A DNA stretch of 64,000 nucleotides from Paecilomyces variotii. Lineage: Eukaryota. A program made the translations under genes and the position numbers. Shown in pieces: positions 27,756 through 36,032 of this stretch. The DNA lies in assembly GCA_004022145.1 (NCBI GenBank), contig RCNU01000006.1. One strand, 5' to 3'. The notes under the pieces are model-generated. The model was not told the DNA's origin and did not search any database. It was given only the letters and a program-made list of their open reading frames with translations. The first letter of the stretch is position 1. Every line of letters begins with the position of its first letter.

Positions 27756-28766
27756 TGTGAAATGCGGAATCTAGAGCTTGAATGCGAAGACACAGAACAG
27801 CGGTATCGGGAGCGTCAAGCCGGACGCGATCCTGGCGGGAGTCGTCCAGTGACTCAATGGAAGTCAATTGCAGCTATGGGAGACTTCAAGCCCGCAGGGA
27901 ACGCAGCATCTCCGACGATGGGCGTGGAAAGGACTAAGTCGGATTTAGCTGTGCTCAGACGAGGAGGGGGGTTTATTGCCAGTTCAGGACACGAGCGACC
28001 AAAACAAGGGTGGTCGAGAACAAGGGAGGCAGAGAAGGAGAGTCAGACTCACGGGAGATTATTTTATTTATTTATTTTAGATATTATTCCGGCTGGTGGA
28101 AACGAAGGATGGACAGCTCCAGCGAGGGGAGACGCGAGAAGAAGGAGCTGGCCAGAAAGTTCAAGGACACGCAGCATTCTACAAACGGGAATGGCCGAGT
28201 GGAACCTTTCAGCAGTCCACGAGGACCGCGCCCGACGTCCGGACGGCCAGGGTTATTATTAGGTCTTTTATTGTTGTGGCTGACGGCGCACACTCCTTTT
28301 TTGGTGTATGTTTTATGTTTTTGGACACAATTGTATCTGTGCTCGTTTGATTATTATTATTGTGGTTATTATTGTGGTCATGGATGTATTTTGGTTTTGT
28401 TCTGCCGCTGTCTTAACAGTAGATAGACCCTGCACCCGAGAGTACCATGTTTCGATCTTAACACTAGACTTGGTTATCTATCAGATCAGAGGACCCGCTA
28501 CCTCCGTCACCACGTAAGGGGAATAATCCCATCCAAGAAAGGGGTCGTTTGTGTATATATAGGTGTATATTATCTATACGGTATATCATCAATACCATAC
28601 ATATTGTTTCGTCTGCTACCAGAGCTATCTACAGATAGATGGATAGAATACAATTATAACAATAAAAATAAAGTAAGCAAAAATACGCCCGGACAATCCA
28701 CTCCCCAATGGGACAACATCCATGCAAATGCGGACAGCAGAAACCATATCAAAAAAAAAAAAGACC

Positions 28767-28810
<44 letters not shown>
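28767..28810. repeat. (AGT)n trinucleotide microsatellite next to an A12 run
   Basis: About 14.7 perfect copies, ~140 nt downstream of the MFS stop codon. Confidence 0.95.
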
Positions 28811-28948
28811 CAGTTCCTCTGCATTCCATTTGTCATTATTGAAATTCCAAGAGCGAAACATAATAGGCTGTAAATTCCATACTGCAACGGAGGGATATCA
28901 TCCTCACGTCTCCAGCAACAGACTCTGACCCCAGACTCCCACTTGATT

Positions 28949-30940
28949 TTATTCCTCCTCATCCTGCCCCAGACGTCTATATTGGCTACTACTACTGCCG
29001 CCTTTCGCTCCGGCATTCCGGTTGCGGTTCACCATATTCGAGATCCAGCCACCAATGCCCTCGCTCCGGTCATCATCGCGGCCATGTTTGCCGTTGGAAC
29101 TGCCGTTGATGTTTGGAGGTTCGATGTCCAGTCCGGGAATGGCACTCTCTGCGCCGAATTGGTGCGGCTGACGTCGAATATCAAGAGACGGGACCGGCGA
29201 GCCCGCCCCTATCAGAGATCCTCGTTCCGCCTGTGCCGCAGGAGTTGGCATTGCCGTTGAAGCATCCCCGAACAGAACATTCATATCTTCTAGGCGAACA
29301 CCACTGGTCTCTGGGTACAGGAAGTACACTAGAATAGCAGTCAACAAACTGATGGCAAACTCCCGACAGCAACATTTAAGAACTTACCAACAACAAAACT
29401 ACACGCACAGAAGAACGCGTGAACGAGATATAGGCGCCATTTGATAGCTGCTTGCAGGATGGGGGTCACTTCTCCAACGAGCCAGTTGAACGCCCAATTG
29501 GTGGCGGTACTCAAACTAGCGCCTTTTGCACGAATGCTGAGCGGGAGAATTTCCGGGGGATACAGCCATGGAATGGGGCCCCAGGACGCGCCGAATGCAG
29601 CGTTGTAGATCATGACGAAAATGACTGTCAGGGTAGGAGTGGCAGGCACGTCGATATAGATGAAGTAGGAGATCGCAGAGAGCGAGAGGAGCATGGCCAC
29701 TGCACCGGAAAGCAGGATCGGGCGTCTACCCCAGCGGTCGACGAGGTACCACGGCGGTATAGTAGACGCAAAATACGAAAGTGCATTGACACCCGTCATC
29801 AGGATAGCTGCTCGACCTGCCCAACCAGCGGACTCAAACACCAGAGGGGCGTAGTAAGAGATCACGTTGATACCGTTGAGCTGTGCCAAGGCCTGAGCTG
29901 ACATGGCAATGAAGACACGCCTGTAGTAGCGCTTGAACATGTCCCCGTATGACCTTTCACCCTCTTGGCGCTGAAGGAGGACGTTCATCTTGATCTCTCG
30001 ATACTCCTGTCGGGCCTTGTCATTGTGCAGGTCCCCTCCACCATACAGGTTGGCAATGACCACCATGCCCTCCTCATCATGATCATTATCCAACAACCAC
30101 CTGGGGTCATAAGTTAGCTCACATGCTAACGGACAGCCATCGAATACACCTCACTGGACACAATGGGATCCCATACTTACCTAGGCGACTCGCAAATGAT
30201 CAGACTACCAAACCCGAGAAGGGCTCCCATAATGCATTGGCACAGCAGCGGAAGACGCCAAGAATAATCGCTCTCGATAAAGCTGCATAGATAGTCAACC
30301 CATACGCTAGCCGCGTATCCGGTGATGTTGCCCGTAAACTCGATACAGGCCAGCTTTCCTCTGTTATGCGGCGGAGAAATCTCCGACTGGTAAACCGGAA
30401 CGATAGTCGAGAGTGCACCAACTCCGAGACCAGCAATGATACGACCAACCATCATCATTGGCAGACCATTGGCAAACGATTGGAAGGCACCACCGATGAA
30501 GAAGATGATCGACCCGTACAGAATGGTTCGCCTGCGGCCTATCACATCACCGATCCTCCCAACAAGTATCGAGGAAATGAACGCTCCTATTTCCAGAATG
30601 GCAACGACAGTACCGATCTCCGCTCGGGACGGTTGATTGAAGTAGTCCTTAAAATACCAACCCCTAGACTAGCATTAGTATATTGATTGACGCCAGATTG
30701 CTGAATTGACCCATGGCAAGTTTCAGATCAGATAAGACGTACGTAATAATACCAGACATGACACCCTGATCATATCCAAAAAGGAAAACGCCTAAAGAAA
30801 CAAAGACACTGGTAAAATACCTAGCGAGCTGTTAGTAATGGGGCCTTCGTAGAGCACGAATGAGAGCGTCGGAGCACATACAGCAATGGCTTGCCCACCA
30901 AGCCATGCGTGAGGGCGGCCTGTCGATTGCTGGGCGACAT
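28949..30940 (-). CDS. MFS sugar porter (monosaccharide transporter); coordinates from first ATG, probable longer non-AUG form
   Basis: MSPSNRQAALTHGLVGKPLL|YFTSVFVSLGVFLFGYDQGVMSGII, GRRRTILYG, VYQSEISPPHNRG, ESPRWL, QLNGINVISYY, WGPIPWLYPPEI and PETSGVRLE sugar-porter motifs. Confidence 0.92.
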
Positions 30941-33122
30941 GATGGCTGCTATAACCCGCTCCGCTCGAGAGATCCGTCTTGGAGCGGGTCTAGGGAGCTC
31001 TATGGCCTCTTTATCAACTCCACCGTGCTGACTGACGTCTTCCGGGTAATGTACTCTTTTCTTCTTCTTCGTCCCCCCTCGAGACCGAGCCCGAGCGTGT
31101 CCGAAGACCTCCTCGTCGAGAGACGGGCGCAGACGGGACCGAAGAGGGTCCTCCGCGTCGGCGAGCTGCTCCGCTAGGTCGCCAGTATCGGACCAGGTGG
31201 AAAAGTCAGAGGCGTAGGATGAACGGGAGGACGGCCGACTGCCTTCCTTCTTCTCTTCTTCCCCGGATTCAAATAGCAACGTCGACCGCTCTGCCCCGGA
31301 TCGAGAATGGGACGAGAGACGCCGGAGAGGGATGCTGGCGGAAGTACGGCGGGCGGAGCTGGAGGAAGGAATGATGGCGGTGATAAAGGGCTGGTCGAAG
31401 CAGCCCTATTTCCGCGGCGAGACAGGAGTGATGATCTCGGAATGAGAGGAAGAAAGGACGTTGGCAGAGGGGTAGGTTCGACGATCGCAGCAATGACGGC
31501 CTCCGACGATAGACTTCGAGGGGAGGGCGGTGTGCCGACAGCACGAGGTCCCGCGGGCAAGTCAGTCAGTCTGTCGTCTTCCAGCAGTGACTTGGATGCG
31601 TTGGAGATGGGGGATGAAGCCAAAGAGCGAGAGTGAGCACGCTCACAGCGCGGTCAGCCAGTCACAGAGCAGACCACCGATCACAACAAATGGCTGGTCG
31701 ATGACAGTGGAATAATAATAATGGTGGGCTCTTTAGCTTTCTTGAAGCCGCTCACGAGACGAACTGGAGCCAGATGCAAGATGACGACGAGTGGACAATA
31801 ATATCAAGTCTAGCAGTGGCGGCGATCAGACATTACAGCGCTGGAGGTATTTATCCGGACGACAGTGGACAGACAGTTGGGTGCAATTGGGCTGGCAACG
31901 CGGAGATCTGGCGCGTATGGTCGCTTTAGGGGGTTCAAGTATCAGGATCGGTATTGAGTATCAAGAGGAGATTGATTCCACGATGCGGGATAGATTGATA
32001 AAGAGGATCTCTGGCAGCTACGACAGTAGATAAACCGTTACAAGAGTCTCGCGTCGCAGACACCAAGACACTGGTTAGTTAGTAATTACTCTGGGGTTCA
32101 AAGCCGGATTAGGCGTCTTGGGAAGAGCGGAGTAATAATTAAATGCATAATAATAGGTACCATACATACTAAGGGGATCAGGGGGGCGGGAAAACGGTGG
32201 AAAGCCACTTACATACTAAGAACTAAGAAAGCTGGGGACGGTCGATCCGCCTTTTGCTCCCTCATCGCGTGAACAACAATACGAACAGAATTCGGATGCT
32301 TGTCCTCCGCGCGGCAAATGCTAAGAGGACAACACCTCGGTTCAACAATCAGTCACAGGGTATTACTGGTCTACTTCCCAATAATCACTGACTATTTAAT
32401 AAATCATCATCTAGTCCAACTACCCCGAGAATCGAGATAGATCGACCGTTCTCTCGAATCTGACCTCGTGGCCATCATTTCCTGGTGCCGGAAAAGAGGG
32501 GCCGCGCGCTGCTCCTCTGACGCGGCAATCGCTCCGTGGCCAATAACAATTATTCCAAGAGAAGCTGATCGCATCCGGAGAATCGCCCAGGTTCAATGCT
32601 CGACCACTGGACTCTCGCCGTTGAAATACACTGAATTATAGATACTTAGTAGGGAAGCAGAACACTTCCATGTATTCTCTCTGGCGTTACTTATCCTCTA
32701 GTGTTTTTTTTTGTAAGAATTAGACTTTACATCTATGTCATAATTATAACAGAAACAGTCGTTATACGGTTAGTGCTGGGTTCTTTATATCCTGAAAATC
32801 TTTCCCTCACATTCTTTTCTGATAACCAATTATCAGATGGTGCTTTCCATTCTTCAGGAATAGCTATACTTGTGCCATGTCAAATACATGCTTTATGGTA
32901 CATCGTCTTTTACAAGTAGGCCCATACAGCGTCGACGTCGGCTCATTGTTAAATCAACCTCATAACCCCTTAGGGTCAGTCCTGTGGTACCGCAACTCTG
33001 ATGCTTATTTCTATACTGTAGTCGGATGGAACCTACGGCCGAGAAAGGAAAAGAGGACACACACAAGGAATACGAAATGACTCTATGGGAAGAGCTAACT
33101 CTGAGTAATCTGGAAGATATCA

Positions 33123-35489
33123 TCACTCAATGCACCACAATTGCCGGTCATATTTTTTCTCAACATAAGCCCCATAGAGAAAATCAGTCCCCCTATTCCT
33201 AACCCGGGCTGTCATGCCTGGACCAAGCCCTTCGAAGTCGCCAATACGCGTTGATTCATCTCGGCAAACTACAGAACCTAACTTTCTCCCATATATTATA
33301 CCTTCGCTCTCTTCGACAATGGCAACAAGAATGCCCACGTCCTCCATCATGCTCTCCACTCCCATGAACGAGAGAAGGGCCACTTTCGTTGCCCCGAATG
33401 CTTGCTTTGGATTTATACTGTTTCTCACTTCACGTCGTCCTACACCAGTATCTGAAATAACCGCTTCGGAATACTGCCAAACCTTACGCTTGCAATGGAA
33501 GACGACACGTTGACATCTCCCCATTTCTTCGATTAGGTAAAAATAGCTTGTGAGCGTCGTGTCGGAAACGTCAAACACACGCCCGCGAAGTTGGACCCGT
33601 AGTCCACGGGAGGATGGTTTTCCATGGGGTAGATGTTGATAATTACCGGGAAGCTGGAAATACTCGCCCGTGTGTTGCATAATATTGGATGCCGAGAGAA
33701 GCAGCGTGCGTGGTGCCCATCTTAGACCGGGCTTGTCGATTGTATCTCCCATGTAACACAGGATATTGAGGGGAACGGAATCCATCATAGCCCAAAACAG
33801 CTCCATTCGGGACAGTACATCTTTCTCCCTCAATATCGGTTCCATGTCAAGGTTAAGCAGTGCAGCCAAGCACAGAGTTTCATCAGAAGCCTGACTCGTG
33901 CTCCGGAATGCCACAGCTGTCATCACGGCCGGAAGCGCTTCTTCTCTATCAGAGGAAATCATTCGAAACCCTCGAAGGCTGTCGTATTTTGCGGCCAGAG
34001 AGGGCCAGATTGTAGTACTTGTGGTGATATCTAAAGAAGCTTTACAGCGTCGGAAAGTCAAGTCCAGATCACAAATATCATCCCTGAATAGAAAGAATAT
34101 TGCTTTCGCCAGAGCGCCCTCCTGATAAGTCCACAGGCGTCGGTTCCATGCGGCATTAAAGATTCTCACGAGTAATTCGGTGTCACTCATTTGAAAGCAA
34201 GTCGTGGACATTAGCCAAGAGTCCAAGACCAGGACTGCGGTAGAGTTTTCGTACACCTGTCGCATCATCTTTAAAGCGGTATCTTGTGCCTCCTTTTGGT
34301 CGGCTGCATCAGGGGGGACACATAATGTATCAAGCCAAAACAGGACGGTATCTGCGGCTTTCCCGGGCAGATTACGTATAAGGCTACTCAGATGAAGTAG
34401 TTGGCATCTTGGAAGTGCGTTTCTTTCAACGTTTCCGAGCCCATCTGACCACACATGGGATATGGCAATATAAGACATATCGCTTTTAGCATCAACGAGC
34501 TCAACGTAGGCGCTGTCATCTCCAGGGTCAATAGACACGATGAGAGGGATCCTGCCGCGATTGAGGGATGTAGTAGGGTCTGCAATAATATCATCGCACC
34601 CAGGGCATCCATCCACATGCTTTGTTTTGTATATATCATCTGAGAGCTGCCGGGGTGAACAACTGAGCTCATTACATAGCCTCTGACTGGATGGTTTGTA
34701 TCCTTCCTTGTTGCTGATATTAATCATACGATGCTCTTCTCCAACTGGCGATGGTGTTAGATTCGCTATGAAAATAAGGGCAGAGACAGTAAAAAGCTTC
34801 GTCATAGGCATAATATCAGAAGGACACCAGCCGCGTTGCCGTAAAGCCATCCACATGTAAGGCCTGCTGGTGTCCGGATGAAAATTTAGCGATTGGTTCA
34901 TTATTTCATTAGGTCCCGAAGGAGACCAATGAGTAGTTATATTGCCAAAATCATGGAGTACCATGTTTGCCAGTACATGGTCTGGGTGTCGAGGATCAGA
35001 AGGGCCTTCAGCCATAATAAATGCATACAAGCTCTCAACAGACTGCAGGGACTCGGGATCATTCCTTCTGTGTCCCCACTCGCCTTGCAAATTAGAATGT
35101 ATATTATAGCATAGTCGGAGTGCAAAGACTCCATGATCATCGTTGCCTGATGTCCGTTCGACGGCTTGTAAAGCAATTGCCGGCAGCAGTTGTGTAGTAA
35201 GGATTGGGAGACCGGACTGGTCGCGTTTATGGGACAGAAATACGGTCTTGACATCAATCGGGCATAGCCTCACATGGATGAGGCCGAAATATAGCCACCG
35301 CTGAAGAAACGCTAGGAAGTCGTCGGGGGGGTCATCGAAAATCGCCTGCCATTCAGCCACAGTGAAGGGACCCCAACCCTGACGGTTGGGGTAAGTGAGA
35401 AAGTCGCCGCCATCATAATTAGTCATGCTGAGGATGGGAACTTCGAACCGAAATCCAGCCGGGTTGCTGGGTAAGATAAGATGGTCCAT
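33123..35489 (-). CDS. HET (heterokaryon incompatibility) domain protein
   Basis: Intronless, 788 aa. HET motifs YIAISHVWSDGLGN, LFWLDTLCVP, MRQVYENSTAVLVLD and WNRRLWTYQEG; the N-terminal LQRWLYFGL and GWCP blocks are typical of this HET subfamily. Confidence 0.9.
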   Translation of the reverse strand: MDHLILPSNPAGFRFEVPILSMTNYDGGDFLTYPNRQGWGPFTVAEWQAIFDDPPDDFLAFLQRWLYFGLIHVRLCPIDVKTVFLSHKRDQSGLPILTTQLLPAIALQAVERTSGNDDHGVFALRLCYNIHSNLQGEWGHRRNDPESLQSVESLYAFIMAEGPSDPRHPDHVLANMVLHDFGNITTHWSPSGPNEIMNQSLNFHPDTSRPYMWMALRQRGWCPSDIMPMTKLFTVSALIFIANLTPSPVGEEHRMINISNKEGYKPSSQRLCNELSCSPRQLSDDIYKTKHVDGCPGCDDIIADPTTSLNRGRIPLIVSIDPGDDSAYVELVDAKSDMSYIAISHVWSDGLGNVERNALPRCQLLHLSSLIRNLPGKAADTVLFWLDTLCVPPDAADQKEAQDTALKMMRQVYENSTAVLVLDSWLMSTTCFQMSDTELLVRIFNAAWNRRLWTYQEGALAKAIFFLFRDDICDLDLTFRRCKASLDITTSTTIWPSLAAKYDSLRGFRMISSDREEALPAVMTAVAFRSTSQASDETLCLAALLNLDMEPILREKDVLSRMELFWAMMDSVPLNILCYMGDTIDKPGLRWAPRTLLLSASNIMQHTGEYFQLPGNYQHLPHGKPSSRGLRVQLRGRVFDVSDTTLTSYFYLIEEMGRCQRVVFHCKRKVWQYSEAVISDTGVGRREVRNSINPKQAFGATKVALLSFMGVESMMEDVGILVAIVEESEGIIYGRKLGSVVCRDESTRIGDFEGLGPGMTARVRNRGTDFLYGAYVEKKYDRQLWCIE

Positions 35490-36032
35490 AGTAGCGAGTA
35501 CTTATCAACCGATGACTCTGAAAAAAGGGGACGCGTTCCATTGATACTTATAGTAAGAGCTAGAAGATTTTGAGGCTGAGAAGGGGAGGTTGCACTTTGG
35601 GGGGAGTCAGCAGTATGTACTCCGTAAGTAGCAGCTGGACGAGGGCTTGACATTCATGTGACTCGCAGTCTCTATACATGTTGCTGACGTGTCGATCATC
35701 GTAGCCTACTTAAGGCTGACAACTAAATAGCAACAAGGCTGGATAAATAGAATCAGACCAATCTGACCGTGACCGATCATTGAGGAGTCCCACCATTATG
35801 TCTCCGTTGGGCACCTTTCATGAAATCATAGGTGTTCTGATTGCAGTGCTCTTCAGCAATAAGCATCGATAGATATAAAATCAGTGCCGATCCTCTTATA
35901 TGCGTAGCCTTCCTCACCCCCTCCACCTTTTGGAGGCACATCGCATAAGGAAAAAAAGAGAAAAGGAAGAAAAAGAAAAAGCAGCATTGATTACGGTATC
36001 ATAGGACACCATCTCAACGCACCCGCTCGCAA

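Follow-up and report, generated by a model that had tools for sequence, protein, structure and literature searches.

The minus strand of the window, by which we mean the whole 64,000-nucleotide stretch of Paecilomyces variotii DNA that was analysed, carries a gene for a sugar porter of the MFS type that appears to produce two proteins from a single mRNA, the longer by initiation at an AUU codon and the shorter by leaky scanning to a downstream AUG, a reading to which we assign a probability of about 0.7. In this scheme, one unspliced 5' region of the mRNA would encode both products. A minority of the scanning 43S complexes would initiate at AUU 31372-31370, in a fungal Kozak-like context (C-4, A-3, C+5, U+6), giving a 714-aa protein with a 144-aa disordered, Ser-rich, acidic extension, and most complexes would pass 432 nt kept AUG-free in all three frames by selection and start at the in-frame AUG 30940 (context AUC-AUG), giving a 570-aa transporter with a short tail. 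We infer that both protein forms accumulate. The features discussed below are collected in Table 1.

Table 1. Positions of the transporter gene, its proposed starts and associated elements in the window
Feature	Position	Strand	Remarks
mRNA, reach of assembled transcript contigs	28823..31991	-	X1 record 1, X6 record 12
Short out-of-frame uORF, 7 codons (MSDRRHC-stop)	31810..31833	-	ATG 31833; covered by RNA contigs
In-frame TAG closing the extension frame	31406..31408	-	11 codons 5' of AUU
Stop-to-stop ORF in the frame of ATG 30940	30821..31405	-	Preceded by TAG 31408-31406
Conserved hairpin, GGGCUG 31406-31401 / CAGCCC 31393-31388, 7-nt loop	31388..31406	-	Conservation and covariation
Proposed initiation site, C-A-U-C-AUU-C-C-U	31367..31376	-	AUU 31372-31370, C-4 31376, A-3 31375, C+5 31368
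N-terminal extension, 144 codons, predicted for the long isoform only	30941..31372	-	No ATG in any frame
Conserved downstream start, AUC-AUG (ATG 30940-30938)	30938..30943	-	Start of the annotated 570-aa short form
Core coding region, MFS sugar porter, five exons	28949..30940	-	Stop codon 28951-28949
Introns of the core region	30877-30817, 30741-30663, 30178-30099, 29387-29329	-	Contig joints

Upstream of ATG 30940 the same frame stays open for 155 codons. A sequence-only reading of the window had drawn attention to this frame, and its account of the open frame up to the TAG is accurate, as are the peptide strings it quoted, which are present in the translation, and the in-frame near-cognate codons it named (ATC 31375, ATT 31372, ACG 31282 and TTG 31279). 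It had also reported the sense strand to be devoid of ATG over 30941-31830; no minus-strand ATG was found in any frame over 30941-31832, the next one being at 31833. This 893-nt ATG-free gap is the longest on both strands of the window, where the next-longest gaps measure 434 nt (minus) and 415 nt (plus). The earlier figure of ~14 ATGs expected by chance assumed equal base frequencies and was too high, the composition of the stretch itself giving 9.6 (mononucleotide) or 7.8 (first-order Markov) over the 893-nt gap; for the 432 nt between the two starts in the window alone, the dinucleotide-corrected expectation is only 1.3 ATGs.

Assembled transcript contigs from runs X1 and X6 match the window with 0 differences and lack the four introns, whose joints have GT..AG ends on the minus strand. 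These contigs are colinear with the genome over 30878-31991 (X1) and 30878-31904 (X6), placing the mRNA 5' end at or beyond 31991 or 31904, respectively, and on the 3' side the mRNA reaches 28823, adjoining a repeat that was skipped. In the mature mRNA represented by the spliced contigs, the extension is contiguous with the main ORF. Run X11, which is true RNA-seq, contributes pieces at 31034-31448 and 31658-31826, and run X3 is unspliced with many differences from the window and is therefore DNA-like or from a relative, and uninformative on splicing. No splice joint was seen in the transcript contigs at AG 31407-31406, where an ATG-bearing exon had been considered as a counter-explanation, or elsewhere in 30878-31991; the contigs follow the genome without a break from 30878 to 31991 or beyond, and so an exon bearing an ATG is not spliced in. 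A transcription start site (TSS) downstream of ~31000, the other counter-explanation, is at odds with contigs that span the extension in full and run to 31991 or further, an additional internal TSS still being possible. Transcript contigs of this kind cannot show transcript starts and drop rare variants, so that the gene may also have a rare splice variant, or the short form its own internal TSS; the lack of cover of 31992-32400 by the X1 and X6 contigs was not used to place the TSS.

Because the RNA contigs reach 31904 and 31991, the mRNA leader includes the upstream ATG at 31833. The leader had been described as ATG-free, which is right for 30941-31832 but fails further 5', where this ATG, present in the mRNA contigs, opens a uORF that ends 437 nt 5' of the AUU. 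One orthologous locus (L001) has a uORF equal in length to that of the window and different in peptide, and in the DNA of other orthologs upstream ATGs occur at varied positions and begin unrelated peptides, several of them lying inside CCAAT-like motifs. Sugar transporter mRNAs controlled by uORFs, of the rco-3/sor-4 type, are mentioned in PMC7049704.

Homology searches with the extension matched 138 longer proteins and also 171 representatives, the taxa with matches comprising Eurotiomycetes, Lecanoromycetes, Leotiomycetes and Xylariales. Orthologous DNA was collected from metagenomes as best tblastn hits to this query, yielding 80 loci, 56 of them distinct; single-linkage clustering, tried as a count of independent lineages, put 44 of 57 sequences in a single chained cluster and gave no useful number. 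In none of the 56 distinct loci does an in-frame ATG occur from the upstream stop to the conserved Met. Over 124 columns, the mean pairwise differences at codon positions 1, 2 and 3 are 0.366, 0.291 and 0.605; four-fold sites differ by a median of 0.64, and the median dN/dS of the extension is 0.25 (IQR 0.16-0.35; 204 pairs with 0.1<dS<1.5, of 1596). The 57 loci together have 0 stops from ATT to ATG in frame 0, versus 129 in frame +1 and 336 in frame +2. Judged from these alignments, the extension is under purifying selection; the sequence-only reading had looked to such an alignment for a conserved frame, dN/dS below 1 and absence of ATG, and all three are found in Pezizomycotina. We propose from the same comparisons that the two-start arrangement was already present in the ancestor of a broad part of this group.

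In the ortholog alignment, amino-acid conservation begins at the ATT, and no conserved peptide was found upstream of it. The Ile codon at the proposed start is ATT in 57/57, a count that overstates the independent observations because the loci are phylogenetically related and were taken as best tblastn hits to the query; C-4, A-3 and C+5 are likewise each present in 57/57 and T+6 in 54/57, and position +4 is C in 46/57, not the favoured G. Ile elsewhere in the extension is encoded by ATC (223), ATA (104) and ATT (103), and all other invariant residue columns vary synonymously, the ATT column being the only one fixed as a codon. The nearest in-frame stop lies 3 codons 5' of ATT in L032, L041 and L039, 6 in L075, 7 in L027, 8 in L001 and 11 in the window, and a stop within 25 codons occurs in 33/57. 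Given the ATT in 57/57 with its invariant C-4, A-3 and C+5, together with the in-frame stops close upstream, the long form most likely starts at AUU 31372-31370 rather than at ATC 31375, the codon for which the sequence-only reading had proposed a mutational check; A-T-C stands directly at -3..-1 of ATT in at most 17/57. The long in-frame extension, earlier put at ~145-155 aa, is refined by this start to 144 aa. AUU is one of the weaker near-cognate codons, and the site is presented here as a predicted initiation site at which AUU would be the codon actually used. An AUG may start the long form in some lineages, e.g. Aspergillus sections Flavi and Nigri; of the 73 annotated proteins spanning the Ile column, 13 have an M at most 20 residues upstream of it. 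The CATTCC around the AUU was also considered as an AbaA-type site (CATTCY) and rejected, position -1 being C in only 30/57.

The downstream AUG is present in 57/57, with A-3, T-2 and C-1 each in 55/57, and the Ile codon before it is ATC in 53/54; that the context is kept, a synonymous site included, speaks for two starts used through leaky scanning. Between the two starts, 10 ATGs in any frame were observed over the 57 loci versus 197 expected, with none in 47/57, and the 10 exceptional ATGs have T or C at -3 and open uORFs that close 5' of the conserved AUG. Selection against AUGs between the starts, previously surmised from the window, is thus common to the orthologs, and the proposal of leaky scanning to two isoforms is largely supported by this depletion and by the context of the downstream AUG.

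The translated exons are matched by the annotated proteins P0272 (570 aa, beginning MSPSNRQ) and P0356. An Aspergillus ortholog carries the label AFUA_1G07700. The short form P0272 carries a precomputed PF00083, and on the ortholog P0002 the Pfam family Sugar_tr (PF00083) scores above its gathering score (E 1.7e-102, 344 bits, profile 3-452 of 452); the extension matches no Pfam family. An AlphaFold2 model of P0002, built with 54 aligned sequences, is poor (mean pLDDT 55.2, pTM 0.52), with pLDDT of 29-48 in nearly all ten-residue blocks of the extension and short helices at 74-81, 86-99 and 147-156, and in this model the extension is probably disordered. Its conserved motifs comprise RRSS-type Ser clusters and W-S-D-T-G-D-L-A-E-Q-L-A-D-E-E-D-P-L, and these motifs suggest a possible role of the tail in phospho-regulation, sorting or turnover.

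An AUU start would explain the systematic annotation failure of this gene. The same species is annotated at 570, 746 and 930 aa, and in several of its strains the public annotation begins at ATG 30940 (P0272); many genomes have a model of ~570-576 aa for the gene, and others have models of 700-800 aa with invented N-termini. Among the 120 homology matches listed, 27 (counted by hand) are fusions to a neighbouring mitochondrial-carrier gene. Synteny with this carrier was considered for the window and does not hold, the upstream minus-strand ORF at 33123-35501 being a different gene.

Several other accounts of the 5' region were weighed. It is rather improbable that, with AUU beginning the long form, the short form comes from an internal TSS, or is never made, the Met being merely internal. 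Alternative TSSs are common and transcript starts are not visible in the contigs, but without scanning nothing would purge out-of-frame ATGs, of which 10 are seen versus 197 expected, and the nearly invariant ATC before the AUG is a constraint on a synonymous site of the sort expected in a start context. Slightly less probable again is a start at one or more other near-cognate codons: ATC 31375, ATC 31384, ATC 31333 (the Ile of IPLR), ACG 31282 or TTG 31279. None of these is conserved as a codon, the IPLR Ile being ATC in 24, ATA in 15 and ATT in 11 loci and A-T-C right before ATT being confined to 17/57 at most, and invariance of synonymous site and context is found only at ATT, where conservation begins; this outweighs the facts that all the candidates are in frame in the window, that ATC 31333 and TTG 31279 have A at -3, that 50/57 loci have a near-cognate ATH codon for the IPLR Ile and that, according to PMC5487733, cpc-1 uses several near-cognate codons.

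We consider it very unlikely that splicing joins the extension to an ATG-bearing exon further 5', as the 746-aa model P0356 has it; that model begins MYGTYYYAFNYYSALPKTPNPALNPR, apparently connected to PFITAIIPSS through an intron of ~700 nt with its 3' end at CAG 31394-31392. This model, with its 32088-to-31391 joint, does exist in public annotation, the CAG could act as an acceptor and contigs drop rare isoforms; however, neither the X1 and X6 contigs nor the X11 piece at 31034-31448 has a joint where it crosses 31392, in L039, L032 and L041 the equivalent CAG/CGG is separated from ATT by an in-frame stop, the loci L027, L034, L032 and L035 have no AG there with the pairing retained, and no peptide further 5' is conserved. 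Because the same species is also annotated at 570 and 930 aa, these models look like ATG-seeking. Scarcely credible is an untranslated extension, whether a conserved 5' UTR or a coding remnant recently disabled by loss of an ancestral ATG: third codon positions are the most variable, dN/dS is 0.25 and in-frame stops are absent from all 57 loci, against the annotation of several strains from ATG 30940 and the ATG that some relatives may have near the site. The lack of ATG is common to 56/56 loci and therefore reflects no recent loss.

Upstream of the proposed AUU start lies a hairpin whose 3' edge is 15 nt 5' of the AUU in the window, with a spacer of 11-17 nt across orthologs. The hairpin folds in 45/46 sequences, 93.8% of cells are paired versus 26-52% with the partner slid, and its covariation comprises 9 double-sided changes in 3 pairs, reached by 0/500 shuffles. 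The window's hairpin region alone (81 nt) is unremarkable (z -0.96), 40/200 shuffles folding as well or better, and the case for the hairpin is one of conservation with modest covariation; no Rfam match was found in 30900-32000 at E up to 1. On the 3' side, RNAalifold gives no predicted pair for -3..+75 in 46 sequences, the median MFE z for +4..+63 of AUU is -0.27, and stable structure ~14-20 nt 3' of the start, as in START or in the downstream-hairpin effect of Kozak, is not present. The end of the hairpin, 11-17 nt upstream, lies about where the mRNA exits the 40S subunit with AUU in the P site. The CAG of the 3' arm was considered as a splice acceptor and rejected, given four sequences without AG and in-frame stops after the CAG in three. 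That the hairpin is a new kind of upstream cis-element, or a factor site, that sets or tunes the long:short transporter ratio is a speculative suggestion that we regard as unlikely. It could serve as a backstop, refolding behind the scanning complex and holding it over the weak start codon, or could instead bind a factor, and the tuning of the ratio could respond to nutrients.

With AUU fixed including its synonymous third base, and invariant across fungal classes in which other synonymous sites are near saturation, few comparative cases of a single near-cognate start would be as clean. The invariant AUU and the AUG-purged path to the second start therefore make a good natural model for start-codon stringency, and the gene is a candidate for studying how stringency (eIF1/eIF5) sets isoform ratios in filamentous fungi. 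Known genes of this sort mostly encode transcription factors and dual-targeted enzymes; this one would extend the list to a membrane transporter, with a 144-aa regulatory tail predicted on only part of the transporter molecules and the upstream hairpin as a candidate element for near-cognate initiation. A literature search by the locus name of the A. fumigatus ortholog found nothing, and a non-AUG start for this transporter family was not found in the accessible portions of PMC5487733 and PMC7049704, although supplementary genome-wide tables might list an ortholog.

Among known systems, aminoacyl-tRNA synthetases of Cryptococcus have AUU- and ACG-initiated mitochondrial isoforms (Wallace et al. 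2020, PMC7049704) and share with the present gene the use of one mRNA, a weak near-cognate in strong context (cccaccAUU for ArgRS) and leaky scanning to an AUG; there, the added N-terminus is a short presequence that sends a soluble enzyme to mitochondria. Here, unlike in Cryptococcus, a 144-aa disordered acidic/Ser-rich extension would precede a polytopic membrane protein, and a targeting function is hypothetical. Yeast ALA1 and GRS1 are comparable cases. Tzani et al. are said to have described in 2016 a mammalian PTEN proteoform that is N-terminally extended from an AUU, as proposed here, PTEN being a mammalian gene. In structure-assisted non-AUG initiation (START), as far as PMC11165317 is accessible, a hairpin lies downstream of the start; the likeness is RNA structure near a non-AUG start, the conserved hairpin of the present gene lying 11-17 nt upstream, not downstream. 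In Neurospora crassa cpc-1 and its Pezizomycotina homologs, a near-cognate-initiated N-terminal extension has been described (Ivanov et al. 2017, PMC5487733). As in the present gene, that extension is long, conserved, in frame and devoid of AUG, the main frame is under purifying selection, near-cognates that have A at -3 and a near-optimal context are conserved across Pezizomycotina, and annotations do not settle the start. cpc-1 has several partly conserved candidates (ACG 98/100, AUU 64/100 plus 10 AUC or AUA, CUG 73/100) and is interwoven with two regulatory uORFs, whereas the transporter gene has a single AUU, in 57/57 of the related loci, and an AUG-free path to its second start; the product of cpc-1 is a bZIP factor, and that of the present gene a membrane transporter.

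A script scan of the window found no minus-strand ATG over 30941-31832, the next one lying at 31833, and this 893-nt gap is the longest free of ATG on either strand (runners-up 434 and 415 nt), with 9.6 (mononucleotide) or 7.8 (Markov-1) ATGs expected in it from the stretch's own composition. The sequence-only reading had ended the gap at 31830; the 155-codon open frame that it described upstream of the transporter ATG, closed by a TAG, is present as claimed, and the near-cognate codons that it listed are all in frame.

Features of the transporter gene and its upstream extension in the window
Feature	Position	Strand	Basis or remark
Intron (GT..AG)	29329-29387	minus	removed in X1/X6 transcript contigs
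Intron (GT..AG)	30099-30178	minus	removed in X1/X6 transcript contigs
Intron (GT..AG)	30663-30741	minus	removed in X1/X6 transcript contigs
Intron (GT..AG)	30817-30877	minus	removed in X1/X6 transcript contigs
First ATG of transporter frame	30940-30938	minus	sequence
Open frame upstream of ATG	31405 down to ATG, 155 codons	minus	translation
In-frame stop TAG	31408-31406	minus	sequence; closes the extension frame upstream
Hairpin	31406-31388	minus	first G is the G of TAG
Proposed start ATT	31372-31370	minus	context GCC-ATC-ATT-CCT
Extension from proposed ATT	144 codons	minus	predicted long protein 714 aa

Transcript contigs from two public sequencing runs, X1 and X6, are identical to the window and colinear with it from 30878 to 31991 (X1) or 31904 (X6), and X11, which is recorded as an RNA-seq run, adds pieces at 30887-31063, 31034-31448 and 31658-31826; the mature mRNA therefore contains the extension together with no less than 530-620 nt of upstream sequence. 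No upstream exon joined at AG 31407-31406 or elsewhere occurs in the contigs of these three runs, including the ATG-bearing exon that the sequence-only reading had considered at that AG, although such contigs cannot place the TSS and lose rare isoforms. Because the contigs extend past 31833, the leader includes that ATG, which opens a 7-codon out-of-frame uORF ending 437 nt before the proposed AUU start. At the other end of the gene, shortly after the stop codon, the 3' UTR carries a long trinucleotide repeat (TAC/CTA) and then a T run (28770-28822, minus strand); 28700-28822 was excluded from read mapping as a repeat, and the transcript contigs stop at 28823.

With the 175-residue translation of 31405-30881 (P0001) as protein query, 138 longer proteins were matched, at 37-62% identity among the 120 matches listed, from sources named as Aspergillus, Penicillium, Onygenales, Chaetothyriales, Lecanoromycetes (many, lichen-forming), Leotiomycetes and Xylariales, and an exhaustive HMMER search matched 171 representatives. 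The extension matched no Pfam family; the core of an ortholog (P0002) is Sugar_tr (PF00083, E 1.7e-102). A metagenome-contig scan for orthologous DNA yielded 80 loci, 56 of them distinct, making 57 sequences with the window. Mean pairwise nucleotide difference was 0.366, 0.291 and 0.605 at codon positions 1, 2 and 3 (124 well-occupied codon columns), and over the stretch from the proposed start to the AUG the 57 sequences together have 0 stops in frame versus 129 and 336 in the other frames. The frame is conserved with dN/dS below 1, as had been anticipated from the sequence (Nei-Gojobori median 0.25, IQR 0.16-0.35, maximum 0.59, from the 204 of 1596 pairs with 0.1<dS<1.5), and the expected absence of ATG likewise holds, none of the 56 distinct loci having an in-frame one from the upstream stop of that frame to the conserved Met. 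This coding signature indicates that the extension is conserved and translated. Run X3, from a related strain or relative, is unspliced and divergent from the window and was left out of the splicing evidence; its listed small indels (+3, -4, +1, -5 and +4 nt at 31585, 31868, 32047, 32158 and 32419, all upstream of the AUU, with others in intron 1 at 30844 and further upstream at 32550) spare the 432-nt extension, a distribution that fits coding constraint.

Aligned as proteins, the 57 extensions share an invariant Ile, in the motif x-I-P-S, where the conserved region begins on its 5' side; it is encoded by ATT in 57/57. The other invariant residue columns (D, T, G, D, Q, E, D, L, E, I, P, R, E) use two to six codons each, Ile elsewhere in the extension is ATC 223, ATA 104 and ATT 103 times, and four-fold sites differ in a median of 64% of pairwise comparisons; the third base of this ATT is therefore held by something other than the amino acid. 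Around it, A-3, C-4 and C+5 are each found in 57/57 and T+6 in 54/57, with -2 and -1 variable. Fungal start contexts have the consensus CA at -4/-3, and on this alignment the fixation of -4, -3 and the codon, with -2/-1 left free, has the form of a start context. A at -3 and agreement at -4 are what the cpc-1 paper (PMC5487733) emphasises. The upstream in-frame stop lies 3 to 104 codons before the Ile (at most 25 in 33/57), and in three loci (L032, L041, L039) just 3 codons separate it from the ATT, leaving almost no other start position. The ATC at 31375 favoured by the sequence-only reading is merely the -3..-1 triplet of this ATT, and A-T-C stands there in at most 17/57, judged from per-position counts.

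Some lineages may instead use a nearby AUG: among models covering the Ile column, 13/73 have an M at most 20 residues upstream, and part of these could represent genuine AUG gains, for example in Aspergillus sections Flavi and Nigri. In a subgroup of relatives (P0079, P0090, P0100, P0105, P0115, P0118, P0121) the proteins start with an M that lies a few residues ahead of an RR-S-YSS block (MSATIDNEKEK..RRDSYSS), with sizes of about 570-580 aa except P0079 (706), P0090 (324) and P0100 (440 aa); this may be a shorter, AUG-started extension of another lineage. The nearest upstream ATG of the orthologous loci often lies within a CCAAT-like motif (..ccaATG..), 113-193 nt upstream of the ATT (L018, L048, L055, L060, L071, L075, L077 and others); in 12 loci it is followed at once by a stop (a one-codon uORF), and in another group it opens uORFs starting MRDP. 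These ATGs may be promoter elements upstream of the TSS or start-stop/uORF elements of the leader.

Gene predictors require an ATG, and with this goes an inconsistent annotation of the gene across records. The protein has about 570-576 aa in many records from Aspergillus, Penicillium, Monascus and Talaromyces, others have 700-800 aa with unrelated N-termini, and by our count 27 of the 120 matches listed also carry a mitochondrial-carrier domain, which is a fusion to the neighbouring gene. Paecilomyces variotii alone has models of 570, 746 and 930 aa. The 746-aa model (P0356) starts with an exon-1 peptide reading as the window ATG near 32167 and joins it to PFITAIIPSS, implying, when the window sequence is read against the model, a ~700-nt intron with its 3' end at CAG 31394-31392; the colinear transcript contigs contradict this intron. 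Several orthologs (Emydomyces, Ophidiomyces, Lecanora, Microsporum, Exophiala, Coniosporium, Paecilomyces lecythidis) are labelled at source 'Ribulose bisphosphate carboxylase large chain', an obviously mistaken name that looks like a propagated annotation error. Upstream of the transporter in the window lies a 792-codon stop-to-stop ORF (33123-35501, minus strand) with ISHVWSD and FWLDTLCVP-like strings, of the kind commonly found in the heterokaryon incompatibility (HET) domains of fungi; it differs from the mitochondrial carrier adjoining the ortholog in Aspergillus and Penicillium.

The proposed AUU start and the downstream AUG, kept in 57/57, are 372-456 nt apart (432 in the window), and between them only 10 ATGs in any frame were observed versus 197 expected, 47 loci having none; the 10 are all out of frame, with T or C at -3 and uORFs ending before the AUG. 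Out-of-frame ATGs have no effect on an elongating ribosome, so their removal argues that scanning ribosomes cross the extension to reach the downstream AUG. There, A-3, T-2 and C-1 are each found in 55/57, and the preceding Ile codon is ATC in 53/54, a synonymous-site constraint that fits a start context. Both the ATG depletion and this context support the leaky scanning suggested earlier: some ribosomes would start at AUU, giving the 714-aa long form, and others would scan to AUG 30940, giving a 570-aa short form. The short product is the form annotated in several strains, and one such record of 570 aa (P0272), named Paecilomyces variotii by its source, shows full identity to the window across 99% of the query.

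Upstream of the ATT, nucleotides are conserved and the reading frame is not; the conserved element consists of GGGCTG, 6-9 nt and CAGCCC. Across 46 sequences thinned at 93% identity, 93.8% of the cells in its six pairs are base-paired, versus 26-52% with the partner slid by 1-3 columns, and three pairs show both-sided changes (GC to AU; 9 cells, reached by 0/500 shuffles), which are confined to few clades and thus reflect a small number of independent events. The hairpin folds in 45/46 sequences (-6.6 to -13 kcal/mol), its 3' edge 11-17 nt from the ATT. The window hairpin sequence alone is thermodynamically ordinary (z -0.96), an Rfam scan of 30900-32000 gave no match, and no conserved structure was found downstream of the ATT; the element may instead be a palindromic DNA site.

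The AlphaFold2 model of an ortholog, of low confidence, has the extension disordered with three short helices. Conserved within the extension are a cluster of Ser that follows basic residues (consensus EK-G-RRS-SS), an acidic block (W-S-D-T-G-D-L-A-E-Q-L-A-D-E-E-D-P-L), K-R-V-H-Y, and a D-K-E-A-I-E-I-P block directly before the Met. Judging from other fungal transporters, it is a reasonable guess that the extension acts as a phospho-regulated tail in sorting, turnover or autoregulation.

In the main texts and abstracts searched, no non-AUG start was found for this transporter family. AUU initiation and two protein forms, proposed here from comparative and transcript-level evidence, would work in the manner of the Pezizomycotina cpc-1 extensions initiated at near-cognate codons (PMC5487733) and of the Cryptococcus isoforms that start at AUU and ACG (PMC7049704). 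On that evidence, this transporter would be a new instance of a known mechanism, and an unusually clean one, with a single invariant AUU and, in addition, a conserved upstream hairpin.
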